Translations under genes and position numbers: made by a program
Assembly: GCA_002716765.1 (NCBI GenBank)
Contig: PBBY01000012.1
Span: forward strand, 18,321-82,320
DNA length: 64,000 bases
Origin: Candidatus Magasanikiibacteriota bacterium
Lineage (GTDB): Bacteria > Patescibacteriota > Patescibacteriia > Magasanikbacterales > UBA922
Direction of reading: 5' to 3'
The notes under the pieces: model-generated
What the model saw: only the letters and a program-made list of their open reading frames with translations
Database searches by the model: none
What the model was told of the DNA's origin: nothing
Shown: piece by piece, positions 11,635-48,384 of the stretch
Layout: every line of letters starts with the position of its first letter
Numbering within the stretch: position 1 is the first letter of the stretch

Positions 11635-13077
11635 TTATCCAAATGTCATGTCGCTGGTAAACCCGGCGTCATCTTTTTTTTCTTCTTTTGCTGGAGCTGA
11701 TGGAATATGAATTTCTTCACCATCTTCTGTTGGTAATACTATATCTGCCATTTCTGGCACTGCTTCAATATGTTCTAATGGCAAACCAACAGGAGGTTCG
11801 GATGCTTTTGCTGAAACTTTTTGCACCATTGGTGTTTTTACGTGAGACATAGGAAAATGCCAAATAGTAGCAAGTTCTTCTACATTCAAAATAAACGGAT
11901 CCGACTTTCCTTTAAGTTTTTTTTCTTTTATTTTTCTTTTTTTATAGCAATCAAATAGTAAATTTTTTCTTTTGGCTGATCGTTTTTCTACCTTATAGTA
12001 TGAAGCACCAACACCATAAACCGGAATAATAGAATTTGCTGTTGGAATATTGAATTGATTTAATGCGCCCATTAATGCTGGTACACCACGCTCTGGCCGA
12101 AAAAATTCTTTTTTTGCCACATATGCCGCACGAATTTTTGATTTCATGCCAATTTTTGCAATTTTTTTCTCCATTCTTTCTATTAGTTTTCCTTGACCTG
12201 GGGATAATTTTGGTGCTTCGGTTTTTGTTTCGGAAGGTTCTACATTTCTTCCGGTAAGTTGGTCCCCTAATGCTTCTAAAAAGGCAAGAATAAAAGAAAA
12301 AATCTTTTCTAAAGCATTTGATTTTCCTGAACTTTTTGCATCTCCGGTAATTTCATTTATCTTCTCAATCGCCGACTCTTTCCATGAATTAGATATTGGT
12401 TCTAAATTAATTTGTAACCACATTTGTTCGCCTGGTCCAATTCTTGAAAAGCTTTCGAGCATGGCACTCATTGGATCTTTTATTACTTCTTCTGCACTTC
12501 CGTGTTCAAATTCGTCATGTGTTCGAATAGGGAAAGTCTCGTCTTCGGAAAAACCAAAATCTGTTGCCCAAATATCGTGTGTATCATTTGGATAAACAGA
12601 CGGCACATCTGTGACATAATCTTCGATTTCGGTAATTTCTGCATCCGGATACTGCGCATAAATAGCAGATTCTAATAAATCTCTGTAAAGTGATTCTGTG
12701 CGAATAATAAACTGAATATATCCTTCTATACTAATAATTTCAAAACTAAACCATCGTTGTTTATATCCACCTCTAAATTTTGCGGCAATATTTGGTTCGT
12801 CTAGTGCGCCGGCAATATGCAAAAATAATTGCTCTACTGCTTTTGGTGTTTGCAAATTCATTGGTGGCACATCTACAGCCAACACTTGCCACTTCCAGGT
12901 GCTGGTATATTTATCTGATCGATATTCTAAATATAATTCAATAGCCAAATACACTAATAACCAAAATAAGAATAGATATAACCCAACCACAAAAAGATCA
13001 CCAACAATTGTGGTAATTGGTTGAAAGAAAAATGCTTCAATGCCTGAAAAATCTATGGTAACAAACCCAAGGTTCAT
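11635..13077 (-). CDS. Conserved-looking hypothetical membrane protein: N-terminal TM hairpin plus a large soluble domain
   Basis: The 480 aa protein has N-terminal hydrophobic helices (VVGLYLFLFWLLVYLAIELYL), then an alpha/beta-looking domain (WFSFEIISIEGYIQFIIRTESLYRDLLESAIYAQYPDAEITEIEDY), and an acidic tail. I recognise no motif. Confidence 0.6.
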   Translation of the reverse strand: MNLGFVTIDFSGIEAFFFQPITTIVGDLFVVGLYLFLFWLLVYLAIELYLEYRSDKYTSTWKWQVLAVDVPPMNLQTPKAVEQLFLHIAGALDEPNIAAKFRGGYKQRWFSFEIISIEGYIQFIIRTESLYRDLLESAIYAQYPDAEITEIEDYVTDVPSVYPNDTHDIWATDFGFSEDETFPIRTHDEFEHGSAEEVIKDPMSAMLESFSRIGPGEQMWLQINLEPISNSWKESAIEKINEITGDAKSSGKSNALEKIFSFILAFLEALGDQLTGRNVEPSETKTEAPKLSPGQGKLIERMEKKIAKIGMKSKIRAAYVAKKEFFRPERGVPALMGALNQFNIPTANSIIPVYGVGASYYKVEKRSAKRKNLLFDCYKKRKIKEKKLKGKSDPFILNVEELATIWHFPMSHVKTPMVQKVSAKASEPPVGLPLEHIEAVPEMADIVLPTEDGEEIHIPSAPAKEEKKDDAGFTSDMTFG

Positions 13078-14276: not shown

Positions 14277-16316
14277 TTATTCTTTATTACTATAGCCTAA
14301 AAATAACCAACTACCGTATCGTGAAAACCATGGAACCACAAATCGCAAAAAGGCGCGTGTTATGGTAATGGCTGAAAACATACTTAACAACACACCAATA
14401 GAAAGTGTTGCCGCAAACCCTTGGACAAAACTAGAACCAAACCCAACAAGCAAGACACAAGTAATAAGCGTCGATATGTTTCCATCTCGAATAGATGTCC
14501 ATGCACGTAAAAATCCTTCTTCTACTGCTGCTTTTAGGCTTTTTCCTGCTTTTAATTCTTCTTTTACTCTTTCAAAAATAAGAATATTTGCATCAACTGC
14601 CATTCCGATAGATAAAATAAACCCAGCAATTCCCGCAAGTGTAAGCGTGACACCAATTCCCTTAAATACCGCCAAAACAAGAGATATGTATAAAGTGAGT
14701 GACAATGTCGCCAAAACACCAGGAAGTCGGTAATAGAAAATCATGAAAAGCATAACGAGTATAATCGCAATAAATCCAGCTCGAAGACTTTTTTGAAGAG
14801 ATTCGGCACCAAGACTCGCACCAATTGCTTGTTGTGAAATAAGTTCAATTGGCACAGGCAATGCTCCGGTATTTAGTCGTTGTGCCAAAAGCCGCGCTTC
14901 TTGCATAGAAAAGCTTCCGGTTATTACCGCCTCTCCACCACTGATAACTGACTGAACCGTTGGAATACTAATTGGCGCACCATCAAGAAAAATAGCCACC
15001 GGTTTATTTAAATTTCTTTCTGTAATTTCTTTAAATAATTGCGTTCCCTCTTTATCAAAATTAAGTGTTACCTGCACACTACCAGTTTGTTGATCTATGG
15101 CGACGGCTGCCCGGTCAAGTTGTTTTCCGGATAGTTTGGTTGGTTTCCAATTATTTGATGGTGGCAAAATATCTTTTTGTGTTAACTTTCTTTTCATTAT
15201 ATGAGACAACTCATATGCTAATGGTAACTCTTCTGCTGTTTTATAAATAACATGGTATCCAAAATCTGTTTCAACTGGACCAACTATTTGACCAACTTCG
15301 GCATCAAAAACAGCAGCTTCGAACGCAGGAACCATCGCACCTTTGGCAAACGTCCCAAGGTCACCACCAGTATCTTTATTACTTGCATCAGTTGAGTACT
15401 CTTTTGCTAATGCATCAAAATTTTCACCATTTACTTGCGAAAATATATCTTGTGCTTTTTGCAATGCTTGCTCTTTTGTAACATCTTCACTTGCACATGC
15501 TTTTGCACCAAAATAGCATACTAAAATATGTTTTGCCGAAACCTTTGGTTCTCCATCTTTTTGCGCACCTCTTTGTAAAATATGATAACCAAACTCAGTT
15601 TCAATTGGTTTTTCCGAGATATCTCCTTCTTTATGAGAGGAAGCCCAAATATATAATGGATCCAATCCTGGGATACCACTCTCTAAAAACCCAATATTTC
15701 CTGCATTATTTTTACTTCCTTCATCATCTGAATGTTCGGTTACTAAATCAGCAAATACTGCTCCTCCGGCAAGTTTTTGTTGTATGTCTTGAGACTCTTT
15801 TGCCGCATTTTCATTTGTTTCTGTAATTTGCTGCTTTTCTTCTTCTGTTAATTCTCGCGGTGGTTCGTTGTTTTGTTCTTGAAAGTCCAAAATTGGCGTT
15901 TCTCCTATCATTTTAATCGCCTCATTCACATCTTCAATTCCTGGTAAATCTACAATCAGTCGAAATTCATCACCAACGCGCGCAGTTTGCACGTTTGGTT
16001 CAGAAACTCCCGTACCATTTACTCGTCTTTCTACCGCGTCTCGCACTCCTTCTACTGCTTGCGGTTGGTCGCCTGGTTCTATTCCGGCAACATTTGCTTT
16101 ATATACCAAATGCGCACCACCTTGCAAGTCCAACCCTAATCGAAATGGAGATTCTGGTAGTGTTGGTAATCCAACATGCGTTACTGCATTAATTGTAGTA
16201 ATTGCGCGATTTGCATATTGTGGGACCACAAAAGAAAGTGCACCAATGAGTAAAATAAAAATACCAACTATCCCCCACCGCATCTTTGACCGAATGTGTT
16301 CTTTTTGATTTTTCAT
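14277..16316 (-). CDS. secD: Protein translocase subunit SecD with inserted tandem parvulin-type PPIase domains
   Basis: The SecD core is present (LGLDLQGGAHL...; C-terminal TM bundle GMAVDANILIFERVKEE). An insertion of roughly 220 aa at about aa 150-375 contains parvulin signatures: KHILV..., GGDLGTFAKGAMVPAFEAAVF, and FGYH twice. Confidence 0.9.
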   Translation of the reverse strand: MKNQKEHIRSKMRWGIVGIFILLIGALSFVVPQYANRAITTINAVTHVGLPTLPESPFRLGLDLQGGAHLVYKANVAGIEPGDQPQAVEGVRDAVERRVNGTGVSEPNVQTARVGDEFRLIVDLPGIEDVNEAIKMIGETPILDFQEQNNEPPRELTEEEKQQITETNENAAKESQDIQQKLAGGAVFADLVTEHSDDEGSKNNAGNIGFLESGIPGLDPLYIWASSHKEGDISEKPIETEFGYHILQRGAQKDGEPKVSAKHILVCYFGAKACASEDVTKEQALQKAQDIFSQVNGENFDALAKEYSTDASNKDTGGDLGTFAKGAMVPAFEAAVFDAEVGQIVGPVETDFGYHVIYKTAEELPLAYELSHIMKRKLTQKDILPPSNNWKPTKLSGKQLDRAAVAIDQQTGSVQVTLNFDKEGTQLFKEITERNLNKPVAIFLDGAPISIPTVQSVISGGEAVITGSFSMQEARLLAQRLNTGALPVPIELISQQAIGASLGAESLQKSLRAGFIAIILVMLFMIFYYRLPGVLATLSLTLYISLVLAVFKGIGVTLTLAGIAGFILSIGMAVDANILIFERVKEELKAGKSLKAAVEEGFLRAWTSIRDGNISTLITCVLLVGFGSSFVQGFAATLSIGVLLSMFSAITITRAFLRFVVPWFSRYGSWLFLGYSNKE

Positions 16317-20659: not shown

Positions 20660-20688
20660 TTGCAAAAGAAGGTTTTTTTTACTATACT
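20660..20688 (+). promoter_or_regulatory. Near-consensus sigma70 promoter of the ATP-grasp / mraY / mpl operon
   Basis: TTGCAA (20660-20665), a 17-nt spacer, then TATACT (20683-20688). The ATG at 20699 is only about 4 nt past the expected start site, so the mRNA would be near-leaderless. Confidence 0.6.
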
Positions 20689-20698
20689 AAGCCTAAAT

Positions 20699-21949
20699 AT
20701 GCAAAAATTACGAACGTGGCTTAAAAAACACCACATTATCTATGTAAATCGCTCTTTTGAGCGGGCTTATGGAATGGATCTGTCTATTCCTGATTTTTCT
20801 ATTATCTCAAACATAAGTGAATTTGCCAAGCAGCACAAACAAGACAGATCACATATTGTGCTCATAAAAGATGCCACACTTTTGGACTCTTGGCAACTTT
20901 TAACGCATCCAAAAGCATTAACATACATTACCGAAAAAAAACAAAAGCAATTTGGAGGTGTAGTCATTTTTAAAAATAATAAAAAAATAGAGCGAATTTG
21001 TGCAAAAAATAACATACCACTCCTTAATCCACCAGCAGATTTGGTAAACACTATAGAACAAAAAATCTCACAAGTAGCATGGCTTAATGAATTACAGAAA
21101 TACTTACCTCCAACACAAATTGATATATGTAAAAACATATCATGGAACTTTGAGCCATTTGTTTTACAATTTAACCAAGGGCACACCGGGAGTGGAACCA
21201 CTCTTATTGAACATGAAAAACAGTTACAAGAATTACAAAAAAGATTCCCGGAAAGACCTGTAAGAATTTCTGCATATATTCGTGGTACTACATTTACCTG
21301 CAATACCATCGTTTCCAAAGACGCAGTACATGTTGGTTCATTGAGCTACCAAATTACTGGACTTATGCCGTTTACTAACACACAATTTGCGACCATTGGT
21401 AATGACTGGCAATTACCGCATACTATATTATCTTACGAACAACAAGCAATAAGCAAAGAAATAGCAAATGCAGTTGGAAAAAAAATGCAACAAGAAGGAT
21501 GGCGCGGTGCTTTTGGTATAGATGTTATTGTAGAAGAACAAACTGGAAACGTGAATCTATTAGAAATCAACGCAAGACAAGCGGCATCAGTTACATTTGA
21601 GTCACAATTACAGCAATATGCCGCGCCAAAAAGCGCAAATAACCTTATGACCACATTTGAAGCGCATATTGCCGCTCTTGCAGGACTTAGCACAAAAGAT
21701 CACAAACTGATTCCCGTAAAAACAGGCGCACAAATTGTTTTACGATTATGGGAAAAAACAAAAAAAGTAGAACAAGCGCAATTAAAAAAAGAATTAGAGG
21801 ATGCCGGCTTTTTCATTATTTCTTATAGATCAGATGCACCTGGTTCGGATATGCTGCGGATACAGAGCAAAGAAAGTATTATGGAAAAACATGCCACGTT
21901 TAACACAGTAGGGGGAAAGATCATGACCATTATAGAAAAATATTTATGA
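20699..21949 (+). CDS. ATP-grasp family ligase of unknown specificity
   Basis: The C-terminal half shows the ATP-grasp pattern (WRGAFGIDVIVEEQTGNVNLLEINARQAAS). The start is set at the ATG at 20699, because the ORF-track TTG at 20660 coincides with the -35 box. The stop overlaps the next gene's ATG (ATGA). Confidence 0.7.
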   Translation: MQKLRTWLKKHHIIYVNRSFERAYGMDLSIPDFSIISNISEFAKQHKQDRSHIVLIKDATLLDSWQLLTHPKALTYITEKKQKQFGGVVIFKNNKKIERICAKNNIPLLNPPADLVNTIEQKISQVAWLNELQKYLPPTQIDICKNISWNFEPFVLQFNQGHTGSGTTLIEHEKQLQELQKRFPERPVRISAYIRGTTFTCNTIVSKDAVHVGSLSYQITGLMPFTNTQFATIGNDWQLPHTILSYEQQAISKEIANAVGKKMQQEGWRGAFGIDVIVEEQTGNVNLLEINARQAASVTFESQLQQYAAPKSANNLMTTFEAHIAALAGLSTKDHKLIPVKTGAQIVLRLWEKTKKVEQAQLKKELEDAGFFIISYRSDAPGSDMLRIQSKESIMEKHATFNTVGGKIMTIIEKYL

Positions 21950-22722
21950 TAACTAAATACATCGAAAAACCCGCAATGACTATTATCGATACTTTTTTGC
22001 ATTTACCTATTAAAAACAACGTTATTTCTTGTCCATATTTTAATAATAAAGTGACAAAAGCTCGTGCTGGTTTGCGAGTTAACCTAGGAAAAGGTTCACC
22101 AGAAGATATTAAACAAGAAATCACTATTATTGCACAAAAAAAACATATTGATCTAGATCAACTTTCTCGGGACGATATAAAACGATTTTTTGTAGATAAC
22201 AATATTGGTATTGATTGCTCTGGTCTTGCTTATTACATTCTTAATGCACAAGCAATATCTCAAACAGAAAAACCATTACGAAGATTCTTATCTTTTCCAA
22301 AAACACACAATCCATTACGAAAACTTATTCGTAGATTTCGGCCAATAGAAAATACCAACGTAAAAGTATTTGCAGACAATACAAACAGTCAAACTATTGC
22401 ACTAAAAAATGTTCGACCTGGAGACATAATTACTATGATTGGCACAGGAAAAAATCACGATCTTGACCACATTCTTGTGATTCATGAAGTGGAGTATGAT
22501 GAAGATATGCCAAAAAAGATATACTACACCCATAGCCTAAAATGGTTTGCCGACGGAAAACATAATCACGGAGTCAAGCAAGGCAGCATTACGATTACCG
22601 AACCGCAACAAGATATAACAAAACAGTTATGGGAAGAATCTGGTAAAAAAGACAAAGAAAATGAAACACTCTGGCGCGCCAAGACTGCCAATAAAATAGC
22701 GCTCCGTCGATTACGCATATAA
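21946..22722 (+). CDS. Putative NlpC/P60-type (papain-like) cysteine peptidase/amidase with an uncharacterised N-terminal region
   Basis: Has a catalytic-type Cys context (GIDCSGLAYYILN), a downstream His (LDHILVIHEV) and YYTHS. The N-terminal ~90 aa (CPYFNN...GKGSPEDI) are not recognised. It overlaps the upstream gene by 4 nt. Confidence 0.5.
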   Translation: MITKYIEKPAMTIIDTFLHLPIKNNVISCPYFNNKVTKARAGLRVNLGKGSPEDIKQEITIIAQKKHIDLDQLSRDDIKRFFVDNNIGIDCSGLAYYILNAQAISQTEKPLRRFLSFPKTHNPLRKLIRRFRPIENTNVKVFADNTNSQTIALKNVRPGDIITMIGTGKNHDLDHILVIHEVEYDEDMPKKIYYTHSLKWFADGKHNHGVKQGSITITEPQQDITKQLWEESGKKDKENETLWRAKTANKIALRRLRI

Positions 22723-22769
22723 ACACTCCTTGAAACAATAGCGTTTTTATGCTATTATAATCCCTATCT

Positions 22770-23903
22770 ATGATACTCACAGAATCAACAATACACGTAT
22801 TACAGACCGCTCTTGGCTTTGGCGCAATTGCCAGTATTGTGTCATTTCTTTGGGCACCAGTCCTAATTGCTTTTTTATACAAATATAATATTATCAGAAA
22901 TCCAGAATACGACGCATCGCTTGCAATGGGTGCAAGAAAAAGCAAGGCTGGTGTACCAGTTATGGGTGGACTGCTGGTTATTGTAACGGTTGCTGCCATT
23001 ACCATGATTTTTAACTGGGAGAGAAGCTTTACGTGGGTGCCGATTGGTGTAATGCTTCTTTCTGCCACACTTGGTGGAGTAGATGATCTGCTCAACATCT
23101 TTAATCAAAAAAAACGAAGGAACAGAAAGTTGCGGCAGATTTTTACCCTTATAAAAGTCCACAAAAATACCTGGTATAGAATTTGGCTGGTTATTACACT
23201 TCCTTGGTCTATGTTTAAACGCACATCACTTTGGCTTGGCTCACACCCTGGAAAAGGATTACATGTTCATGAAAGACTGCTTACAGAATTTATTGCCGGA
23301 GCCATAGCTGCGTGGTGGATTTATGTAAAACTTGGAAAACATTGGCAAAACATTGCTATTCCATTTGATGGAACTGTCGATATTAGTTGGCTTATTATAC
23401 CGTTTGTCATATTTTTTGTTGTTGCAACCGCCAATGCTGTAAACATGGCAGACGGTATGGATGGTTTAGCTGGAGGCGCCTTGATTATTACATTTTCCGC
23501 ACTCACGATATTAAGCTGGATAGAAGGATATGGAGAAATTGCAATTCTAAACGCAACCACAACTGGTGCGTTGTTAACGTATACCTATTTTAATATTAAA
23601 CCAGCACGGTTCCAAATGGGTGACGTTGGTTCTCTTGGTCTTGGATCACTCCTTGCAATCAATACTATTGTTATAAACCACATGCTTCTGTTACCGCTTC
23701 TTGGGTTTATTTTTTATGTGGAACTTGCCAGTGTTATTATTCAAATTTTAGGGCGATATATTTTAGGAAAACGTATTTTTACTATGGCACCAATTCACCA
23801 CCATTTTGAAATGCGTGGCTGGAGTGAAGAAAAAACTGTTATGCGGTTTTGGATAATCCATGCCATGGTAGTATTATTCGGATTATGGGTTGCCTTGCAC
23901 TAA
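22770..23903 (+). CDS. mraY: Phospho-N-acetylmuramoyl-pentapeptide transferase MraY
   Basis: Ten-TM protein with MraY motifs: GGVDDLLNI, NAVNMADGMDGLAGG, PARFQMGDVGSLGLG, and APIHHHFEMRGWSE. Confidence 0.93.
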   Translation: MILTESTIHVLQTALGFGAIASIVSFLWAPVLIAFLYKYNIIRNPEYDASLAMGARKSKAGVPVMGGLLVIVTVAAITMIFNWERSFTWVPIGVMLLSATLGGVDDLLNIFNQKKRRNRKLRQIFTLIKVHKNTWYRIWLVITLPWSMFKRTSLWLGSHPGKGLHVHERLLTEFIAGAIAAWWIYVKLGKHWQNIAIPFDGTVDISWLIIPFVIFFVVATANAVNMADGMDGLAGGALIITFSALTILSWIEGYGEIAILNATTTGALLTYTYFNIKPARFQMGDVGSLGLGSLLAINTIVINHMLLLPLLGFIFYVELASVIIQILGRYILGKRIFTMAPIHHHFEMRGWSEEKTVMRFWIIHAMVVLFGLWVALH

Positions 23904-23904
23904 T

Positions 23905-24567
23905 ATGACCAATTATCTTAACTGGAAGCAAGAAACAATTACCGACGTGTCTGCAGAACATATTACCAATATGTATAACCAAGGTTTTGTTTTTACCCGC
24001 CGTGGAAAAGGGGCAATGGATCAAACAAGAAGCATGCGGATAGATTTGAATCAGTTTAAATTAACAAGCGAAAATAAGCGGATCTTGCGAAAAACAGCAG
24101 ATATTTCTCTTTCTACCCACACTATTCCTTATTCTGATTACCATTGGTCAATCGGAAAGGTTGCAAAAGATTTTTATGAAACAAAATTTGGTAAAAAAAC
24201 ATTTTCTGCAAATGCAGTAAAAAAATGCCTAACAAACGCAAAAGAAACAAATTTTACCACACTCCTTGTCTACAAAAAAGACGATACTGTTATTGGCTAT
24301 GCCATAAGTTATGAAAACACAGACATACTACATTACTCCTATCCATTTTACCTGCTAGATTTTCCTAATAATAATCTTGGGATGGGAATGATGGTAAAAG
24401 CCATAGTTCACGCAAAAGAAACCGGAAAAAAACATATTTACCTTGGTTCTGCACAAAGAAAGAGTGATGTCTATAAATTACAATTTAAAAGATTGCAATG
24501 GTTTACTGGTAAAATTTGGTGCGATGACTTGGAAGCCTTAAAACACATATTGAATACTACCTCATAA
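23905..24567 (+). CDS. ATE/Bpt-like (arginyl/leucyl-tRNA-protein transferase C-domain-like) GNAT-fold transferase
   Basis: Resembles the ATE_C pattern: KLTSENKRILRKTADISL..., ...ISYENTDILHYSYPFY..., ...HIYLGSAQRKSDVYKLQFKRLQWFTGKIW. The family consensus is ...YLGY...M.YK..F.P.E...G.W. It lacks the N-terminal Cys-rich ATE_N motif. The ATG at 23905 is 1 nt after the mraY stop. Confidence 0.55.
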   Translation: MTNYLNWKQETITDVSAEHITNMYNQGFVFTRRGKGAMDQTRSMRIDLNQFKLTSENKRILRKTADISLSTHTIPYSDYHWSIGKVAKDFYETKFGKKTFSANAVKKCLTNAKETNFTTLLVYKKDDTVIGYAISYENTDILHYSYPFYLLDFPNNNLGMGMMVKAIVHAKETGKKHIYLGSAQRKSDVYKLQFKRLQWFTGKIWCDDLEALKHILNTTS

Positions 24568-24569
24568 TT

Positions 24570-25964
24570 ATGACTAATACAAAACACATACATTTTATTG
24601 GAATCTGCGGCGTTGCCATGAGTGCCTTGGCTTTAGCGCTTCATAAAAAAGGGTATGTTGTTACCGGGAGTGATAAAGGGTTTTATCCACCAGTTTCCAC
24701 AAAACTAAAAGAGTCTGGTATTGTGTTTTACCCAGGATGGCATGTAGAAAAAATGACAAAAGAAGGTAATCCTGATTTAGTTGTTGTAGGAAATGTTGCC
24801 TCCTCAACAAATCCTGAATTGTTGTATATACAAGAAAAAAACATTGCATACAAATCGTATCCAGAATTTATTGCTGAATTTTTAATAAAAGAGCATTCTA
24901 TTGTATGTGCCGGAAACTTTGGAAAAACATCCTCCTCCGCCCTACTTTCTTGGCTACTCAAAGAAAATGACTATAATCCAAGCTATATGTTTGGCGGACT
25001 TGCGGCCCATGATTTTCCATCCGCAGAAATAACCGATAGCACCTATTCTGTTCTTGAAGGAGATGAATATAAAACTGCCAGATGGGATAATCGGCCAAAA
25101 TTTATGTTGTATTCCCCTACTCATTTATTACTTACTTCAATTTCCTGGGACCACGCTGATTTATACCCAACAGAAGAACTATACATGAAGCAATTTAAGC
25201 ACCTGATTTCTCTTGTACCAAAAAGTGGGGTTATTGTTGCATGTGCAGAAGGAAAGCATGTAAAGGAATATGTAACAAAATCCCAATCTCGTGTTGTGTT
25301 TTACGGAAAAGGAAAAGAAAGTGATTATTACTACACAAACATAGAAAGCACAAAAGATGGTCTTCGTTTTGATATTATTACCAATAATACTACGCATCAC
25401 ATCTCTTCCCCACTTCTTGGGACATTTATGGTAGAGAATATTTGTGGCGCATTTGCTATGGCGTGCGAACTTGGAATAAAACCAGAAAATTGCATACAGA
25501 CTATTACCACCTTTTCAGGGATTAAACGACGTTTAGAAAAACGATGCGATAGAGGTGTTGTTGTTTTTGATGATATTGCACACTCACCAGAAAAAGCTGC
25601 TTCAGCGCTTTCTACATTGCGATCTGTATATAGTGGCAATATTACTGCGATTTATGAACCAAATACCGGCAACAGAAATACGGAGTCTATTCCACAATAT
25701 GCAGACGCATTTGCAAACGCAAACACCGTTATTATCCCACGACTAAGTAAGGTAAAACAGGACCCAAATAAACCAGCTATTATGGATGGAGGTGCGTTAA
25801 CAGAAGTTATTGGAAAAACGCACCCAAACACACAATACATACCAAATGATGATGATCTTGTGGCACATCTTATTCAAAATACCAAAAAAGAAGACGTGAT
25901 AGTCTTCCTTGGTTCTCATGGATTTAGAGGTATGATAGAGGCTACCTGCGAAAAACTTAGGTAA
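24570..25964 (+). CDS. mpl: Mpl-type Mur ligase (UDP-MurNAc:preformed murein peptide ligase-like)
   Basis: Reads HIHFIGICGVAMSALALALHKKGYVVTGSDKGFYPPVSTKL, GNFGKTSSS, VLEGDEYKTARWDNRPKF, SWDHADLY, DDIAHSP and EPNTGNR. By eye these align with E. coli Mpl landmarks (GSDxxxYPPMST, EADEYDxAFFDKRSKF, EFDHADIF, DDFAHHP, EPRSNT) better than with MurC. Confidence 0.75.
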   Translation: MTNTKHIHFIGICGVAMSALALALHKKGYVVTGSDKGFYPPVSTKLKESGIVFYPGWHVEKMTKEGNPDLVVVGNVASSTNPELLYIQEKNIAYKSYPEFIAEFLIKEHSIVCAGNFGKTSSSALLSWLLKENDYNPSYMFGGLAAHDFPSAEITDSTYSVLEGDEYKTARWDNRPKFMLYSPTHLLLTSISWDHADLYPTEELYMKQFKHLISLVPKSGVIVACAEGKHVKEYVTKSQSRVVFYGKGKESDYYYTNIESTKDGLRFDIITNNTTHHISSPLLGTFMVENICGAFAMACELGIKPENCIQTITTFSGIKRRLEKRCDRGVVVFDDIAHSPEKAASALSTLRSVYSGNITAIYEPNTGNRNTESIPQYADAFANANTVIIPRLSKVKQDPNKPAIMDGGALTEVIGKTHPNTQYIPNDDDLVAHLIQNTKKEDVIVFLGSHGFRGMIEATCEKLR

Positions 25965-25965
25965 T

Positions 25966-26130
25966 CTATTTTCCTTCGTCCATTATATCAACAGACACTG
26001 ATCCGTCACTAATCTCCGTTACTAAAAGTGTTATTCCACACATTTGACACTCTACTACCGAATCAACAGCAACAGAACTAAAAGATGATAGATCAACTTG
26101 ATTTTTACACTCAATACAGGTAAGATTCAT
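25966..26130 (-). CDS. 54-aa zinc-ribbon mini-protein with LysW-like architecture
   Basis: Below the ORF-track cutoff. My translation is MNLTCIECKNQVDLSSFSSVAVDSVVECQMCGITLLVTEISDGSVSVDIMDEGK. It has a CxxC...CxxC ribbon followed by an acidic tail. A good promoter lies upstream. Confidence 0.45.
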   Translation of the reverse strand: MNLTCIECKNQVDLSSFSSVAVDSVVECQMCGITLLVTEISDGSVSVDIMDEGK

Positions 26131-26160
26131 AGGAAAGTTATATTACAAATAGTATGATTC

Positions 26161-26189
26161 ACTATACCAAATTATCGTATTTTTTTCAA
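26161..26189 (-). promoter_or_regulatory. Sigma70-type promoter for the zinc-ribbon sORF
   Basis: The minus strand reads TTGAAA (26189-26184), a 17-nt spacer, then TGgTATAGT (26169-26161). Confidence 0.5.
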
Positions 26190-26202
26190 TCCCTTGCAAA
26201 AT

Positions 26203-27087
26203 ATGTTAGTCACCCCGCAACAAAACAATAAAAACCTTGCGAAGCACTTTAGTCTACCAAATCTCTTTATAAAAAGAGAAGATCTTCACCCATACACATC
26301 TCACAAAGGCCGTGCGATTCCTTTTATGATTGAACACCATATAACAAAAGATACGGTTCGGGAGTTTACTATATCTTCAACAGGAAACGCCGCACTTGCC
26401 GCTATTCTATTTGTGAAAAAGTATAATAGACAAAACACAAAAAAACCGATCACTCTTACCGTGTATGTTGGAAAGAGAATTCCAGAAAAAAAATATGAAA
26501 AATTGTTACAAGAGATTTCCGATAAACATATCCACTTGTTTCAAGTAGAACGACCAAAGAAAACGGCATTTCAAAAAGGACAAGAAGAAGGTGTTATCTT
26601 TTTACGACAATCTACCAACCCCACAGCACTTATAGGCTACAACTCGCTTGCAGAAGAATTAGACACAATACCACAGCTTGGTGCAATTTTTATACCAACA
26701 TCTTCTGGAACCACAGCACAGGCTTTGGGAGAATGGTTCTATCTAAAACAAAAAGATGTGCAAATTCACATTGTTCAAACTACGGCATGCAGCCCGATAG
26801 CAAAAAGATTTGACACAAACTACACACAAACACCAACATCTTTAGCAAACTGCATTGGTGATGTGGTGGCACACAGAAAAGAATCTGTGGTAGAGATAAT
26901 TAAAAAGACGGAAGGCTTTGGTTGGGTAGTAGATGATACAATTATCAAGGAAGCACAAAAACTTCTTTCAGCAAATAATATTGAGGCAACACCAAATGGT
27001 GCGTTATCGGTTGCTGGTCTTATAAAGGCAAAAAAGCAAGGATGGGGAACAAAAAAAAATGTGGTGTGTATTATTTCTGGAATATAA
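26203..27087 (+). CDS. PLP-dependent enzyme of the tryptophan-synthase-beta fold (threonine synthase / cysteine synthase-like)
   Basis: Has LFIKREDLHPYTSHKGRA (compare NPTGSFKDR, with the PLP-binding Lys), ISSTGNAALAAI and PTSSGTTAQ. The ATG at 26203 is preferred over the TTG at 26194. Confidence 0.65.
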   Translation: MLVTPQQNNKNLAKHFSLPNLFIKREDLHPYTSHKGRAIPFMIEHHITKDTVREFTISSTGNAALAAILFVKKYNRQNTKKPITLTVYVGKRIPEKKYEKLLQEISDKHIHLFQVERPKKTAFQKGQEEGVIFLRQSTNPTALIGYNSLAEELDTIPQLGAIFIPTSSGTTAQALGEWFYLKQKDVQIHIVQTTACSPIAKRFDTNYTQTPTSLANCIGDVVAHRKESVVEIIKKTEGFGWVVDDTIIKEAQKLLSANNIEATPNGALSVAGLIKAKKQGWGTKKNVVCIISGI

Positions 27088-27789
27088 TTATACTTCTTCG
27101 GCCGCTTTCATAACCGTAAGAATGTTCTCTCCTGTACCAATACTACTAACCTCTCCTTTTTTTGTATAATATTGTGTTATAATTTGTAAACCCACTTCAT
27201 TTGCTAATTCGTGCAATTCTTCAAATAGAAACCCGTGGTAAAATCTCATACCAAGAATCTGTCCATCTTTATTTTTCCATGGAATAGAAAAGTTGCCACC
27301 ACCATTGGACGTATATTTTTGTCTCGCCCAATCACTATACAAATTCCAATTCATCATTACAATAGTACCACCAGGTTTTAATATTCTGCGCATTTCCATT
27401 AACGCATCGACACGAAAATCCCGGCTTGGTAAATGCTGAAACGCAGCTATGCAAAATACTGTATCAGCGATACTGTCTTGTAATGTTGTTTTAACCATAT
27501 TGTTAACAAAAAATCGCCCTTCTGGAAAACGCTCTCTTGCAATATTTATTAGATTTTTACTTTGGTCTATGCCAATATAATTTACATCCAAATTCCAAAA
27601 TAGCTGACTCAGTCGCCCATTTCCACAACCAACATCCACGACAGTATTCCCCTTTTCCACATATGCACGTAAATCTTTTAGGTCATGCCAAAGAAATGTT
27701 CTTGTTTTAGAAAAATCCTTTGCAATAGTATTGTACACTGCAACATTCTGTTCTAAAATTTGTTTTGCCTTATAATCCGTCATACACAT
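27088..27789 (-). CDS. Class I SAM methyltransferase, Trm9/ALKBH8-MT-like
   Basis: Reads VYNTIAKDFSKTRTFLW (compare yeast Trm9 VYNEIAPHFSQTRYKPW), VVDVGCGNG, IAAFQHLPSRDFRVDAL..LKPGG..MNW and IPW. It is divergent from elp3. Confidence 0.6.
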   Translation of the reverse strand: MCMTDYKAKQILEQNVAVYNTIAKDFSKTRTFLWHDLKDLRAYVEKGNTVVDVGCGNGRLSQLFWNLDVNYIGIDQSKNLINIARERFPEGRFFVNNMVKTTLQDSIADTVFCIAAFQHLPSRDFRVDALMEMRRILKPGGTIVMMNWNLYSDWARQKYTSNGGGNFSIPWKNKDGQILGMRFYHGFLFEELHELANEVGLQIITQYYTKKGEVSSIGTGENILTVMKAAEEV

Positions 27790-27838
27790 ATAATAATATT
27801 GACTAAGATAGCATATTCGTGGTTATATTACAAGTACT

Positions 27839-29545
27839 ATGAAACACAAAAAAACAAACATTATTCAAATACTAGAAACGATTATAGAAAGAAAGCCCAA
27901 AACAAAGGCTGAATTTGACGATGTCAGAAGAAAAGTATGTAGTTCGTTGAAAATATCCCAACCTTCAAATAGTCAGGTTTTAGCTGTATACAAAGAATTA
28001 TTAAAGCAGAAAAAGATTGTCAAAAATCTTACTATAGAGCACCTGTGCATGAAGGCGGGAATTCGAAGCACTTCAGGAATTGCAGTGGTCACATCTTTAG
28101 TAAAGCCATATGCCTGCCCAGGAAAATGTGTGTATTGTCCCACAGAAGTACGTATGCCAAAAAGCTATATTGCCTCAGAACCTGCTGCGGCACGTTCATT
28201 GGCGCTTGATTTTGATCCATACCTCCTTATGCAAAAGCGGATTGAAATGTTGGAAAAAAATGGCCATCCAGTAGATAAAATTGAATATATAACAAAAGGT
28301 GGAACATGGAATGCCTACACACTCGCATACCAGTATTGGTATATTATGGAATCATTTAATGCATGTAATAACCTAACACGAAGAAAGCAAATTCCTCCAA
28401 CACAAGAATCTGATTGGGTTAAAAAACCAATCCAGGCACTGATTGATCGAACAGAAAAAGAACAACGATACAACGAAAAAGCAAAGCATAGAATTATTGG
28501 TATTACATTAGAAACACGACCGGACTGTATTACACCAAAAACAATATATCACATGCGAAAACAAGGGTGTACCAGGATTGAACTAGGACTTCAGGCACCT
28601 GACGATGCCATCTTATCTCTTATTAAACGTGGTCATACGGTAAATGAGTTTAAAAAGGCTATGTACTTGTTGCGTTGTGCTGGTTTTAAGGTAGACTTGC
28701 ACTTTATGCCAGATTTACCAGGAACCACACCAACCCATGATATTGCCATGTATACCTCACTATTTTCCGATCCAGCACTTTGCCCAGATATGGTTAAAAT
28801 TTACCCAAACACTGTTATTAAAAGCGCTGAATTGTATCAATGGTTTAAAAAAGGCAAATATAAATCATACGGAGATAAAGCATTATTCCGTACACTTCTT
28901 GCCATGAAAAAAGCCACACCCAGGTATTGTAGAATTTCTCGACTCATTCGGGATATTCCATCAAATGAAATTAGCGACGGAAATACGATTACCAATTTAC
29001 GAGAATCACTTGCACAATCATTAAAACAGCAAAATGAAGTATGCGCTTGTTTACGCTGTAGAGAAATCTCAAGACAAGTGGGAAATATACCAAAAGATAC
29101 CCCACCACAACTTTTTGTGGACACGTATAAAACAGTTGGCGGAATAGAACATTGTATTACGTTTGAAGACCCAAAACGTATTGCTGTTTTTGGTTTTTTG
29201 CGACTCCGTATTCCAAAACCGCTCTCCAAAGAAGAGGAAAAAGAGTATCCATGGGCTCCGCAACAGTCCTGCCTTGCCTTACTAAAACAAATACCAGAAA
29301 TCAAAAACTGTGCCTTTATTCGCGAACTACATGTATATGGTCAACTAGTAAAAATTGGTGAACAAAAAGAAAAGGCGTCACAACACAAAGGTTTGGGGAA
29401 AAAACTCATGAAAGCAGCAGAAGATATTATACAAAAAGAAGGGATAAAGAAAAGTGCTGTGATTTCTGGTGTGGGAGTAAGAGGGTATTACAAAAAACTC
29501 GGCTACAGAAAAGTTGGCACATATATGATAAAAAAGTTATACTAA
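27839..29545 (+). CDS. elp3: Elp3-type radical-SAM / GNAT tRNA uridine(34) carboxymethyl-modification enzyme
   Basis: Has the radical SAM cluster motif (CPGKCVYCP) and the Elp3 signature (SYIASEPAAARS...DKIEYITKGGTWNAY...ITLETRPD). The C-terminal GNAT carries QHKGLGKKLM. Confidence 0.88.
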   Translation: MKHKKTNIIQILETIIERKPKTKAEFDDVRRKVCSSLKISQPSNSQVLAVYKELLKQKKIVKNLTIEHLCMKAGIRSTSGIAVVTSLVKPYACPGKCVYCPTEVRMPKSYIASEPAAARSLALDFDPYLLMQKRIEMLEKNGHPVDKIEYITKGGTWNAYTLAYQYWYIMESFNACNNLTRRKQIPPTQESDWVKKPIQALIDRTEKEQRYNEKAKHRIIGITLETRPDCITPKTIYHMRKQGCTRIELGLQAPDDAILSLIKRGHTVNEFKKAMYLLRCAGFKVDLHFMPDLPGTTPTHDIAMYTSLFSDPALCPDMVKIYPNTVIKSAELYQWFKKGKYKSYGDKALFRTLLAMKKATPRYCRISRLIRDIPSNEISDGNTITNLRESLAQSLKQQNEVCACLRCREISRQVGNIPKDTPPQLFVDTYKTVGGIEHCITFEDPKRIAVFGFLRLRIPKPLSKEEEKEYPWAPQQSCLALLKQIPEIKNCAFIRELHVYGQLVKIGEQKEKASQHKGLGKKLMKAAEDIIQKEGIKKSAVISGVGVRGYYKKLGYRKVGTYMIKKLY

Positions 29546-29577: not shown

Positions 29578-30822
29578 ATGAAGACTGAATCAATACAGCA
29601 ATATGATCCAATTATTAATGATGCCATCAAAAAAGAGTTGCATCGCCAAGAAAATGGATTAGAGATGATTCCATCGGAAAACTTCGTCTCTCCGGCGGTT
29701 CTAGAAGCTTTGGGGTCAGTTGTTACAAACAAATATGCTGAAGGCTATCCTGGAAAACGATATTATGGCGGATGTGAACATATAGACACGATTGAACAGC
29801 TTGCCATTGATCGAGCAAAACAGATTTTTGGCGCAGAACATGTAAACGTTCAACCGCTTTCTGGTGCACCAGCGAATATTGCAGCTTATTTTGCAGTACT
29901 TAAGCCGGGTGATACTATTTTAGGAATGGATCTGTCTCACGGTGGCCACTTAACTCACGGCCATCCGGTAACTCACATGACACAAGTGTTTCAGTTTAAG
30001 AGATATAAAACTAATACAAAAGGTGAGATTGATATAGAAAATTTGCGAGAAATGGCGCTTGCACATAAACCAAAACTTATTTTAGTAGGATATTCTGCGT
30101 ATTCAAGAGAAATTGCATATGAAAAAATACAAGCCATTGCAGATGAAGTTGGTGCTATAACTATGGCCGATATTGCACATATTGCCGGACTTATTGCTGG
30201 TGGAGAAATGAATAATCCTGTACCAATTTTCGATATTATTACCACCACTACCCACAAAACACTACGTGGACCACGCGGTGGCATGATTATGTGCAAAGAA
30301 AAATTTGCAAAATATATAGATAAGTCCGTTTTTCCCGGTTTACAGGGCGGGCCACACGAAAACAATATCGCGGCAAAAGCGATTGCTTTTAAAGAAGCAC
30401 TTGAACCCAAATTTAAAGACTATGCCAAACAAATTAAAGCAAATGCAAAAGCATTAGAAAAAGTATTTCATGCAAATGACTACACCTTATGTTTTGGTGG
30501 AACCGATAATCATCTACTCCTCATTGATGTTACATCAAAAGGATTAACTGGAAAAGATGCCGAGGAGGCGCTTGATAAAGCGGGTATTACCGTAAACAAA
30601 AACATGATCCCCGACGATCCCAGATCTCCGTTTAATCCTTCTGGAATACGACTTGGCACTCCAGCACTTACCACGCGCGGCATGAAAGAAAAAGAAATGG
30701 AAATTATCGCACAATATATTAACGAAGCAATCACATATCACAAAAATGAAGAGAGATTACATGAAATAAGAGAAGCGGTGCGGCTGTTAACTAAAAAATT
30801 TCCTCTGTATACTTCTCTCTAA
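29578..30822 (+). CDS. glyA: Serine hydroxymethyltransferase
   Basis: Reads LEMIPSENFVSPAVLEA...NKYAEGYPGKRYYGG...TTTTHKTLRGPRGG. Confidence 0.95.
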   Translation: MKTESIQQYDPIINDAIKKELHRQENGLEMIPSENFVSPAVLEALGSVVTNKYAEGYPGKRYYGGCEHIDTIEQLAIDRAKQIFGAEHVNVQPLSGAPANIAAYFAVLKPGDTILGMDLSHGGHLTHGHPVTHMTQVFQFKRYKTNTKGEIDIENLREMALAHKPKLILVGYSAYSREIAYEKIQAIADEVGAITMADIAHIAGLIAGGEMNNPVPIFDIITTTTHKTLRGPRGGMIMCKEKFAKYIDKSVFPGLQGGPHENNIAAKAIAFKEALEPKFKDYAKQIKANAKALEKVFHANDYTLCFGGTDNHLLLIDVTSKGLTGKDAEEALDKAGITVNKNMIPDDPRSPFNPSGIRLGTPALTTRGMKEKEMEIIAQYINEAITYHKNEERLHEIREAVRLLTKKFPLYTSL

Positions 30823-30828
30823 AAAACA

Positions 30829-31293
30829 GTGACACGTATGAAACCAGAAACACACATAATAGACACAGAAGAAGATATGGTTACTCTTGGTGCATCTTTG
30901 GCAGAAACACTTTCTGGCGGAGATGTTATATTACTTAAAGGCAATCTTGGTGCAGGAAAAACCACCATAGCAAAAGGTATTGCAAAAGGACTTAATGTAA
31001 CAGAAGTCATTACCAGTCCAACGTTTACTTACATGCAAGTATATCCAGCTAACCTTACAGAAAAAGGTATTACGCAACTAGTCCACATAGACACTTATCG
31101 TGCAGAAAATCAACAAGCTCTAGAAAACATTGGTATAATGGAATTTTTATTCGACAAAGAAACTGTATCAATCATAGAATGGCCAGAAAAAATTTATACA
31201 TTAATAAAAGACAGGTCGTATATAGACATTTCTATACAACACACAAAAGAAAACTCTAGGAAAATTACCATAATACAAAACAAAAAAAAGTAG
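30829..31293 (+). CDS. tsaE: tRNA t6A37 biosynthesis ATPase TsaE
   Basis: P-loop LKGNLGAGKTTIAKGIAKGL followed by SPTFTY...HIDTYR. The start is either the GTG at 30829 or the ATG at 30838. Confidence 0.85.
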   Translation: MTRMKPETHIIDTEEDMVTLGASLAETLSGGDVILLKGNLGAGKTTIAKGIAKGLNVTEVITSPTFTYMQVYPANLTEKGITQLVHIDTYRAENQQALENIGIMEFLFDKETVSIIEWPEKIYTLIKDRSYIDISIQHTKENSRKITIIQNKKK

Positions 31294-34049: not shown

Positions 34050-35489
34050 CTACTCTTCTCTTTTCACTCTATATAAACTATAAAATACTATACTGAGGAT
34101 AAAACAGACTAATGCGCTAAACTGCACTACTCTTTTAAGAAAATTATTACCAAAATCAAAATGGAATTTGTCTGGTACTAGTGGATCTTCATCATCCTTA
34201 TCGTTTTTTCCATCATTATCGGTATCGGACTCAACAGGATTTGTTCCTTTTTCTTTTTCCTCAATATCCGACAAACCATCATCATCGGTGTCGGATTTTA
34301 ATGGATCGGTACCACTAATTTTTTCGTCGGTATCACTAATTGTATCGTTGTCGTCGTCGGTATCTTCATTATTCCCAACACCGTCTAAATCTGTATCAAC
34401 TGTCTCTTCTGGATTAGTAGGAAACATGTCTTGTTCGTCGTAAACACCGTCGGTGTCGGTATCTACACTTAATGGATCAGTGCCAATTTCATACTCTTTC
34501 CCATCAGTTAGACCATCTTGATCGGAATCTGGATTAAGAGGGTCCGTACCAATTTCTATTTCTATGTTATCATCAAGACCGTCTTTATCGGAATCTTTTT
34601 CTCCTGGATGAAGACCTTTTTCTATTTCTTCTTTGTCGGATATCCCATCTTCATCACTATCACTTTTTTGTGGATTACTTCCGTGAATTTTTTCATCATT
34701 ATCGGTAACACCATCCCCATCGGTGTCTGGAACCAGTGGATCACTCCCAAAAACACGCTCTTCTTCATCAGAAAGTCCGTCGTTATCGTCGTCTGTATCG
34801 CTATTATCCCCTATATTATCATTATCGACATCAGCCCACTCTTTTGCATTTGTAGGAAATAAATCAACCTTGTCTTTGTGTCCATCACCATCAGTATCTT
34901 CACGGATTGGGTTCAGTCCACTATCTACTTCTTTTTTATCTGACAGACCATCACCATCGGTGTCTGTGCTGAGTGGATTAGTCCCCAACTCCTCTTCTTT
35001 AAGGTCATTGAGTCCATCATTATCATCGTCGACATCTTCTTTGTTTCCTATATTATCTCCGTCAGTATCTGAGTCTATATCAAAAGACCTAGAAACATCT
35101 ACAGCAGTAATTTGCTCATTTGCAATAGCGTTTTGTTCTCCGGTATTTGTAGACCCAACAACATTTTGAATTTGAATAGCAATATTTTGCTCACCAAAAG
35201 GAATGGGATATTCTAACCACACTTGTTTTGCTTGCTCAAACCCAAGGTCACGAACCGGGACCAAGCCAATTTGTTCTTGATTATTAAAAAACACCACATC
35301 GGCAGACAGTAAATGGAAGTCATTGTTTACGACAACAGTGTAAATTTTTACCGTGTCTCCGGCAAATGCATTTCCATTGGAAAGCACCACATTTTCGTCA
35401 ACCACAAAATTAAACGTCTGCGCAAACACAACAAACGGAAATAATGAAAAAATAAGGTTAAGTAGGAATACCTTTTTCAGAGGTAACAT
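34050..35489 (-). CDS. Cell-surface protein: signal peptide, Ig/CARDB-like domain, ~15 TSP3-like Ca-binding repeats, C-terminal TM anchor
   Basis: Starts MLPLKKVFLLNLIFSLFPFVVFAQT. DTDGDGLSD/DxDxDG motifs recur throughout. The C-terminus has a hydrophobic helix followed by RVKREE. Confidence 0.85.
   Translation of the reverse strand: MLPLKKVFLLNLIFSLFPFVVFAQTFNFVVDENVVLSNGNAFAGDTVKIYTVVVNNDFHLLSADVVFFNNQEQIGLVPVRDLGFEQAKQVWLEYPIPFGEQNIAIQIQNVVGSTNTGEQNAIANEQITAVDVSRSFDIDSDTDGDNIGNKEDVDDDNDGLNDLKEEELGTNPLSTDTDGDGLSDKKEVDSGLNPIREDTDGDGHKDKVDLFPTNAKEWADVDNDNIGDNSDTDDDNDGLSDEEERVFGSDPLVPDTDGDGVTDNDEKIHGSNPQKSDSDEDGISDKEEIEKGLHPGEKDSDKDGLDDNIEIEIGTDPLNPDSDQDGLTDGKEYEIGTDPLSVDTDTDGVYDEQDMFPTNPEETVDTDLDGVGNNEDTDDDNDTISDTDEKISGTDPLKSDTDDDGLSDIEEKEKGTNPVESDTDNDGKNDKDDEDPLVPDKFHFDFGNNFLKRVVQFSALVCFILSIVFYSLYRVKREE
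34155..35087 (-). repeat. Tandem coding repeats (TSP3-like DxDxDGxxDxxE units)
   Basis: About fifteen Asp-rich units are visible in the translation. The antisense frames give Ser-rich shadow ORFs. Confidence 0.75.
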
Positions 35490-48360: not shown

Positions 48361-48384
48361 ATATGTATTACTCCATACTAACAA

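Follow-up and report, generated by a model that had tools for sequence, protein, structure and literature searches.

A 64,000-nucleotide (nt) stretch of DNA from the marine Candidatus Magasanikiibacteriota bacterium (Patescibacteria, the candidate phyla radiation; contig PBBY01000012.1; G+C ~36%), which we call the window, carries two divergently transcribed genes predicted to act on the wobble uridine of tRNA. One encodes Elp3, a radical S-adenosylmethionine (SAM) enzyme, and the other a SAM-dependent methyltransferase of the Trm9 type. We propose that they form a two-step module of the archaeal and eukaryotic type in a bacterium, in which Elp3 would produce 5-carboxymethyluridine at position 34 (cm5U34) and the Trm9 orthologue would convert it to 5-methoxycarbonylmethyluridine (mcm5U34), and we put the probability of this reading at roughly three in four. 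The identity of the genes, the conservation of their catalytic residues and their conserved linkage are established in this analysis. The pair is a conserved unit across the Patescibacteria and not the peculiarity of one organism, a point that a preliminary description of this DNA had undersold.

Elp3, the methyltransferase and their linkage

Chance is not an issue for either gene, because both open reading frames (ORFs) are long and their family matches strong. The preliminary description had reported divergent ORFs across a short spacer, the motifs VYNTIAKDFSKTRTFLW and DVGCGNG in the methyltransferase, and a full-length Elp3 with CPGKCVYC and a GNAT domain; coordinates, strands and spacer are exactly as it gave them and the motifs are present in the translations (Table 1). 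The true methyltransferase start is probably Met3 (27783), since homologues begin at that position, and the spacer would then be 55 nt. This spacer is presumably a shared bidirectional promoter region, and the head-to-head layout together with the short distance suggests co-regulation from a common promoter region. A promoter-like site (TTGCCT-18-TATAAT, 27765–27794, + strand) faces Elp3, and a promoter and terminator scan of the spacer returned site counts not above those of shuffled sequence. An identical Elp3 is encoded on a 52-kb contig from the Tara Oceans marine metagenome, and the closest named relatives are metagenome-assembled genomes (MAGs) of Magasanikbacteria and other Patescibacteria.

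Table 1. Coordinates of the wobble-uridine genes in the window
Feature	Position	Strand	Remarks
Trm9-family SAM-dependent methyltransferase, predicted tRNA (cm5U34) carboxyl methyltransferase giving mcm5U34	27088–27789	-	ORF of 233 aa
Spacer, AT-rich	27790–27838		49 nt, between the divergent methyltransferase and Elp3 genes
Elp3, radical-SAM and GNAT/KAT tRNA uridine-34 carboxymethyl-forming enzyme	27839–29545	+	ORF of 568 aa
MnmA, bacterial-type tRNA U34 2-thiolase	55501–56574	-	PF03054 and two C-terminal MnmA domains

The Elp3 ORF scores 482.3 bits against the NCBIfam model TIGR01211, above the curated cutoff of 350, and contains the Pfam domains Radical_SAM, Radical_SAM_C and Acetyltransf_1, with the CxxxCxxC cluster of radical-SAM enzymes and, at the C-terminus, a GNAT/KAT domain bearing the acetyl-CoA motif. 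Among solved structures it matches Elp3 of Methanocaldococcus infernus (MinElp3; PDB 6ia8, 3e-100, query residues 37–567 aligned to MinElp3 25–518), Elp3 of Dehalococcoides mccartyi (DmcElp3; 5l7j, 2e-97) and the eukaryotic Elp3 proteins (about 1e-76 to 6e-80). The cluster cysteines C93, C97 and C100 are invariant in all 74 bacterial Elp3 homologues. In the acetyl-CoA motif QHKGLGKKL (QHKGLG at 515–520), Q515-H516 and G520 are kept in 74/74 and G518 in 73/74, and in the YY motif at 550–551 the corresponding figures are 74/74 for Y550 and 69/74 for Y551. The protein is full-length, with its catalytic motifs intact. Architecture (radical SAM plus KAT) and motifs are those of the stand-alone Elp3 proteins of M. 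infernus and D. mccartyi, and by this analogy the other Elongator subunits are not expected. Because the MinElp3 alignment starts at residue 37, the window protein has an N-terminal extension as in archaeal Elp3. This extension is important for substrate recognition and is short in DmcElp3, which has been called a rare bacterial Elp3 (Lin et al., PMC6367351), so that the long, archaeal-type extension sets the window protein apart from DmcElp3. A homologue search seeded with the Elp3 of one related locus (L004) brought up more Patescibacteria-type Elp3 and reached none from Dehalococcoides.

The methyltransferase required other tests, because neither Pfam nor NCBIfam has a dedicated Trm9 model and Pfam recognizes in it general class I domains only (Methyltransf_11, 7.1e-18, and also Methyltransf_25). 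In a single-sequence phmmer search of the PDB the top match was Trm9 of Yarrowia lipolytica (5cm2_Z, 4e-11), with an alignment that extends past the SAM/Rossmann core into the W-x-L, V/IPW and R-Y/F-Y-H region. A family profile built from 53 bacterial homologues again placed 5cm2_Z first, over nearly the whole chain (1.7e-29, 106 bits), followed by PH0226 (1ve3) at 83 bits; a yeast Trm9 orthologue (P0108, 5.2e-70 to 5cm2) likewise has 1ve3 as its second-best PDB match. By hhalign, the bacterial family aligned with 16 yeast Trm9 proteins over 206 columns (E 8.9e-40, positions 13–241 of 250), whereas its alignment with the nearest non-family methyltransferases covers 114 columns of the SAM-binding core only. 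The AlphaFold2 model (predicted local distance difference test score 96.3) shows a Rossmann-type strand order, and with this model Foldseek ranked 5cm2_Z first in the PDB (1.2e-15).

A search of 5.8 billion proteins gave 116 matches at E<=1e-5, of which P0108 is the sole eukaryote-named protein and a confirmed Trm9 orthologue; two further matches, P0105 and P0107, carry the same Trm9 N-terminal motif as P0108. The family is large (~2,200 clusters at 50% identity, E<=1e-30), and the pipeline of the Joint Genome Institute (JGI) labels a few of its bacterial members TRM9 or ALKBH8 and some others 'UbiE'. PDB entry 6f5z_A was considered as Haloferax Trm9 and rejected; it is Hvo_0019, an unrelated Trm112 partner, and was not used as evidence on Trm9. 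With a class I fold, the GxGxG motif, an acidic SAM-ribose ligand and full-length similarity to Trm9 as closest characterized relative, comparison supports a bacterial Trm9 orthologue and not a generic enzyme.

The catalytic residues are informative in this respect. In Saccharomyces cerevisiae Trm9 (ScTrm9), alanine mutants of R29, D72, H116, W145, W168, R241, Y243 and N271 confer zymocin resistance, their activity being lost or strongly reduced (Létoquart et al., PMC4678810). In the roles proposed there, R29, H116 and R241 hold the cm5U carboxylate in place together with Y18, while N271 and H115 read the uracil and W145 stacks on it; the H115A and Q149A mutants are still functional in yeast (PMC4678810). 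All eight essential residues are kept in the window protein, as R30, D75, H119, W148, W171, R182, Y184 and N222, and so is Y19. Across 84 bacterial homologues from different loci, R30 is found in 84, D75, H119 and W148 in 83 each, R182 in 82, N222 in 81, W171 in 74 and Y184 in 53. The position of ScH115 is occupied by Gln in the window protein and by His in 57/84 homologues. The nearest non-family methyltransferases lack R30, W148, W171, R182, Y184 and N222 and keep generic SAM-binding features only. Purifying selection therefore acts on the Trm9 substrate-binding apparatus in the bacterial family.

Linkage to Elp3 was followed in a methyltransferase-centered scan with one genome per GTDB species, in which at least 538 relatives were found and the best 80 loci were examined, all bearing Patescibacteria-type or unresolved MAG labels. 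In 73 of these 80 loci, with methyltransferase identities of 31–55%, an Elp3 gene sits on the opposite strand upstream of the methyltransferase. The pair is strictly divergent in 73/73 cases, with a spacer below 350 nt in 63. Five of the seven loci lacking Elp3 are contig ends with less than 900 nt of upstream sequence, leaving L053 and possibly L060 as true exceptions. Carriers of the pair include Saccharibacteria-labelled genomes (L038 and L041, among others) and complete genomes such as OZ246404.1 and OY782391.1. A look-up of the exact protein found the pair in 6/6 places, in otherwise unrelated contexts. When loci were picked by Elp3 similarity alone, a divergent family methyltransferase of 225–249 aa adjoined Elp3 in 4/4, and the pair was present in all three evaluable loci of a metagenome scan, which used narrow peptide patterns from a single Elp3 sequence and returned four loci. 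The preliminary description had posed conservation of this linkage as a test that could refute it, and the linkage held in the 73/80 species loci and the 7/7 evaluable Elp3-centered loci.

Other neighbors are only partly kept, namely serine hydroxymethyltransferase (SHMT; 24/84 loci), a Mur ligase (22/84) and a NUDIX hydrolase (15/84), and no conserved third gene was seen beside the pair among the 84 loci. Small ORF clusters near the pair that looked conserved were rejected as antisense shadows of Elp3. Since the pair is kept while its surroundings change, the arrangement is a signature of functional coupling.

The proposed pathway and its alternatives

In the first step of the proposed pathway, the radical-SAM [4Fe-4S] domain and the acetyl-CoA-binding KAT domain of Elp3 would carboxymethylate U34 at C5 to cm5U34, as its orthology to the biochemically characterized archaeal and bacterial Elp3 proteins leads one to expect. 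For archaeal Elp3 this chemistry is established, and DmcElp3 has been shown to hydrolyze acetyl-CoA in a tRNA-dependent manner (PMC6367351). In the second step, the Trm9 orthologue would use SAM to methyl-esterify the cm5 carboxylate to mcm5U34, an assignment drawn from its full-length homology, the retention of the residues essential in yeast and the conserved linkage to Elp3. In a third step, MnmA may add the 2-thio group (s2) in the Lys, Glu and Gln tRNAs, giving mcm5s2U34. We infer these products, as well as the independence from Trm112 and the involvement of MnmA considered below, from the genes.

The MnmA gene named in the preliminary description was borne out by its Pfam matches (PF03054, 9.1e-80; PF20259, 5e-19; PF20258, 1.3e-19), which comprise the PP-loop HUP domain and the PRC-barrel and beta-barrel C-terminal domains. 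It is unlinked to the pair, lying 26 kb away, and may act in the same pathway. A Pfam scan of 33 window ORFs and tblastn of the 64-kb window both failed to find MnmE or MnmG; the tblastn queries were the E. coli proteins, validated by Pfam. The same tblastn over 866 kb (window plus related loci) also gave no matches, a result that is uninformative beyond the window because the MnmA control was likewise found in the window only. If both Trm112 and MnmE/MnmG prove to be absent from the genome, there is a credible chance that a Trm112-independent Trm9 replaces MnmEG. The wider proposition, that Patescibacteria use Elp3, such a Trm9 and MnmA (for s2) instead of the near-universal bacterial MnmE/MnmG, is tentative and for now rather doubtful.

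Eukaryotic and Haloferax Trm9 require Trm112 for solubility and activity (PMC4678810; PMC6144793). No such partner had been seen in the window before, and none turned up here, either in the small-ORF inventory of the window or in a phmmer search of six-frame ORFs from the window and 86 loci, which had the limited sensitivity of a single seed and found nothing PF03966-like (best E 0.32). The seed was E. coli YcaR, validated against PF03966. The interface residues of Y. lipolytica Trm9 (YlTrm9) were also mapped onto an alignment of the 16 yeast Trm9 with 84 bacterial proteins. At the Trm112-contact core positions V59 and F78 the yeast proteins are hydrophobic in 16/16, whereas the bacterial proteins are hydrophobic in 11% (mostly Arg/Lys) and 7% (mostly Asp/Glu/Asn), respectively. 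The hot spot E100, acidic in yeast, is Lys/Arg in 41 of the 84; V102 and F116, hydrophobic in yeast, are still hydrophobic in the bacteria. As no Trm112 gene was found linked to the pair and two core contact positions carry polar residues, the bacterial methyltransferase probably works without a Trm112 activator.

A 54-aa zinc ribbon at 25966–26130 was considered as Trm112 and rejected; it is LysW-like and travels with a Mur-ligase/PALP gene cluster. As a separate observation, a ~176-aa protein containing two CxxC pairs and weakly matching the NMD3 family (28 bits) is encoded near the methyltransferase in eight loci, directly downstream of it in five (L025, L038, L041, L050 and L076) and 1.1–3 kb downstream in three (L058, L083 and L084).

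Several points weigh against the proposed module. Trm112, obligatory for eukaryotic and archaeal Trm9, was missing from the loci searched, and should the enzyme depend on Trm112 and the gene be missing from the genome, its function may be a different one. In the profile search Trm9 leads generic methyltransferases by a moderate margin (106 to 83 bits), and the fold search does not discriminate, its next match standing at 7.4e-15. Y184 (ScY243) is conserved in only 63% of homologues, and a distant subclade swaps the PW and RYYH motifs for PY and R-x-variants, because of which substrate details may differ there. The window contains no U34 tRNA gene, nor any tRNA gene at all, and the Trm9 activity assigned to the bacterial family rests on sequence comparison. 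Even so, the computable parts of the earlier interpretation (Trm9 likeness, linkage, MnmA, no Trm112 in the window) all held: solved Trm9 comes out best by sequence, profile and fold, and its profile match is full-length where those of generic enzymes are confined to the core.

Of the alternatives, the one that survives best keeps the Trm9 family and the Elp3 partner and supposes a product or substrate other than canonical mcm5U34, such as another side chain derived from Elp3, a target elsewhere in tRNA or in another RNA, or a changed order of the steps relative to thiolation. The variable Y184, the Gln at the ScH115 position, the altered motifs of the distant subclade and the failure of the single-seed search to find Trm112 would all fit such an enzyme, as would the recurrent NUDIX linkage (15/84) or fusion (P0130, P0337), which hints at extra chemistry; moreover, Haloferax and yeast divert cm5U to other products when Trm9 is missing (PMC6144793). 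However, the residues for the carboxylate (R29, H116, R241, Y18) and for uracil (N271, W145) are nearly invariant, and the yeast H115A and Q149A mutants stay functional (PMC4678810), so that we regard a noncanonical product as unlikely.

Far less probable is a generic class I small-molecule methyltransferase of the UbiE/UbiG/BioC kind that neighbors Elp3 by chance. It draws on the purely general Pfam domains (with Ubie_methyltran at 28 bits), the 'UbiE' labels among the JGI annotations and the Foldseek scores of many class I enzymes close to that of Trm9. Yet no NCBIfam model comes near its cutoff (TIGR01934, 39.8 against 158 bits; UbiG, 34 against 103; BioC, 35.5 against 185; MenG, 32 against 420), generic similarity ends at the SAM core while Trm9 similarity runs full length, the substrate residues specific to Trm9 are conserved here but missing in the nearest other methyltransferases, and Elp3 adjacency persists while other neighbors vary; this explanation is already largely refuted. 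Just as improbable is a CmoM-like enzyme that would methyl-esterify uridine 5-oxyacetic acid (cmo5U, of the bacterial oxyacetic-acid pathway) rather than cm5U: CmoM is also class I and also makes a methyl ester on the U34 C5 side chain, and there are weak NCBIfam matches to CmoM (NF008264, 4e-05) and CmoB, but the CmoM score of 23.2 bits falls far below the cutoff of 366, neither the window nor the examined loci showed a cmoA or cmoB gene, and the gene kept beside the methyltransferase is that of Elp3, an enzyme producing cm5U.

Relation to known systems

The module of Elp3 and a Trm9 orthologue can be compared with several known systems. With Trm9–Trm112 (yeast; Haloferax HVO_1032; the ALKBH8 methyltransferase domain of animals) the bacterial protein shares the class I fold, the full-length profile match, the N-terminal Y..IA..FS.TR lid, GCGNG, H119, W148, PW, R-x-Y-H and the C-terminal N222, and, judging from the genes, it would likewise act downstream of Elp3. 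It differs from yeast Trm9 in its bacterial host, in sequence (~29% identity) and in length, being ~230 aa and lacking the yeast insertion before the RYYH strand; it differs further in the interface positions described above and in having no Trm112 gene in the window or the 86 related neighborhoods. Haloferax Trm9–Trm112 makes mcm5U, and the Elp3 and Trm9 genes are clustered in Sulfolobus solfataricus (cited in PMC6144793). There the same two functions lie physically together, as here, but the Sulfolobus cluster, known to us from that citation, is archaeal, whereas the bacterial pair is head to head in every locus that carries it. Compared with the stand-alone Elp3 proteins, that of the window is also genetically coupled to a Trm9-like gene. 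Bacterial MnmE/MnmG, which makes 5-carboxymethylaminomethyluridine (cmnm5U) and 5-aminomethyluridine (nm5U), acts together with MnmA at C5 and C2 of this wobble uridine, and MnmA is present in the window; the C5 chemistry and its enzymes differ entirely, MnmE/MnmG working with GTPase, FAD and folate with glycine, and Elp3 with radical SAM and acetyl-CoA.

A review of 2020 assigns to Bacteria, of this chemical family, only cmnm5U, 5-methylaminomethyluridine (mnm5U) and nm5U, and treats Trm9–Trm112 as archaeal and eukaryotic (PMC7694415). Bacterial Elp3 also comes up in a paper of 2026, which refers to 'numerous bacteria' that have it, though outside the context of Trm9. In the literature searched, with most subscription journals outside its scope, no description of a bacterial Elp3–Trm9 pair was found. 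There, Elp3 or wobble uridine was not found together with Candidate Phyla Radiation, among the matches listed for queries pairing Elp3 with five lineage names Elp3 was not found, and the single paper naming both Elp3 and Patescibacteria discusses Elp3 solely for Thorarchaeia. What is already known is the chemistry, both enzyme families and the Sulfolobus cluster. What is new is the bacterial host, the group-wide and strictly divergent arrangement and the combination with bacterial MnmA; in addition, the Trm112 interface appears to have been lost in the bacterial family. The advance comes by homology to known enzymes and not as new chemistry, and it is a solid and testable prediction.

If the proposal is true, a very large bacterial radiation would commonly modify its wobble uridines in the mcm5U manner, since the pair is present in dozens of Patescibacteria species. 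Decoding at split codon boxes in these small-genome organisms would then resemble that of archaea and eukaryotes, and such a compact bacterial Trm9 would allow one to ask whether Trm112 is truly indispensable. Should the wider and more doubtful proposition hold, mcm5U and mcm5s2U would occur in a large part of the bacterial domain, and the methyltransferase would be the first natural stand-alone form of Trm9. Anticodon nucleases that recognize mcm5s2U might also act differently on such bacteria.

Neighboring and other genes

Some of the genes around the pair recur in part. SHMT lies downstream of Elp3 in 23/84 loci including the window (29578–31293 region), co-directional with it in all but one; its next neighbor downstream in the window is the t6A protein TsaE (30829–31293). 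A NUDIX hydrolase is encoded within 3 kb of Elp3 in 15/84 loci (e.g., L013, L035, L046, L065, L071 and L075), directly downstream on the same strand in 8 of the 15, and in two independent cluster representatives, P0130 and P0337, the Trm9-like methyltransferase carries it as a C-terminal fusion. Two further proteins, P0369 (542 aa) and P0409 (469 aa), join a Trm9-like methyltransferase to a WecG/TagA-type glycosyltransferase domain, and these may be true fusions or gene-calling read-through.

A large contig, L004 (ENA ERZ25039603 contig_31486; 772,908 bp), carries the pair with a methyltransferase of the divergent subclade, in which PW and RYYH are altered, and also encodes PAS/HAMP histidine kinases, TetR, DHFR/ThyA and alpha-2-macroglobulin. 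The methyltransferases of L091–L095 fall in that subclade too.

Immediately upstream of the methyltransferase gene, the window has a cluster (20660–27087) encoding an ATP-grasp ligase, an NlpC/P60-like protein, a GT4 (MraY-like) transferase, an ATE_C/FemAB-like transferase, a Mur ligase, a PALP-dependent enzyme and the 54-aa LysW-like zinc-ribbon protein, which is encoded on the - strand, ends in DEGK and matches PF21344 at 24 bits, just below the cutoff. The gene order is matched in L003 from the GT4 transferase on, and L005 and L087 share the Mur ligase, the zinc ribbon and the PALP enzyme with the window; the cluster may be a carrier-protein-assisted amino-acid or peptidoglycan-precursor pathway.

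Housekeeping genes of the window include those for NAD-dependent DNA ligase, DnaG, sigma-70, SecA, SecDF, AlaRS, FtsW, MurG, Dus and ComEC. Three long ORFs have no Pfam family at E<=1e-5 (46108–48384, 758 aa; 11635–13077, 480 aa; 10311–11570, 419 aa). The P1 subdomains of the SecD/SecF-type protein at 14277–16316 are separated by two inserted PPIC-type peptidyl-prolyl isomerase domains, and 34050–35489 encodes a protein of 479 aa that bears bacterial thrombospondin type-3 (TSP3) repeats.

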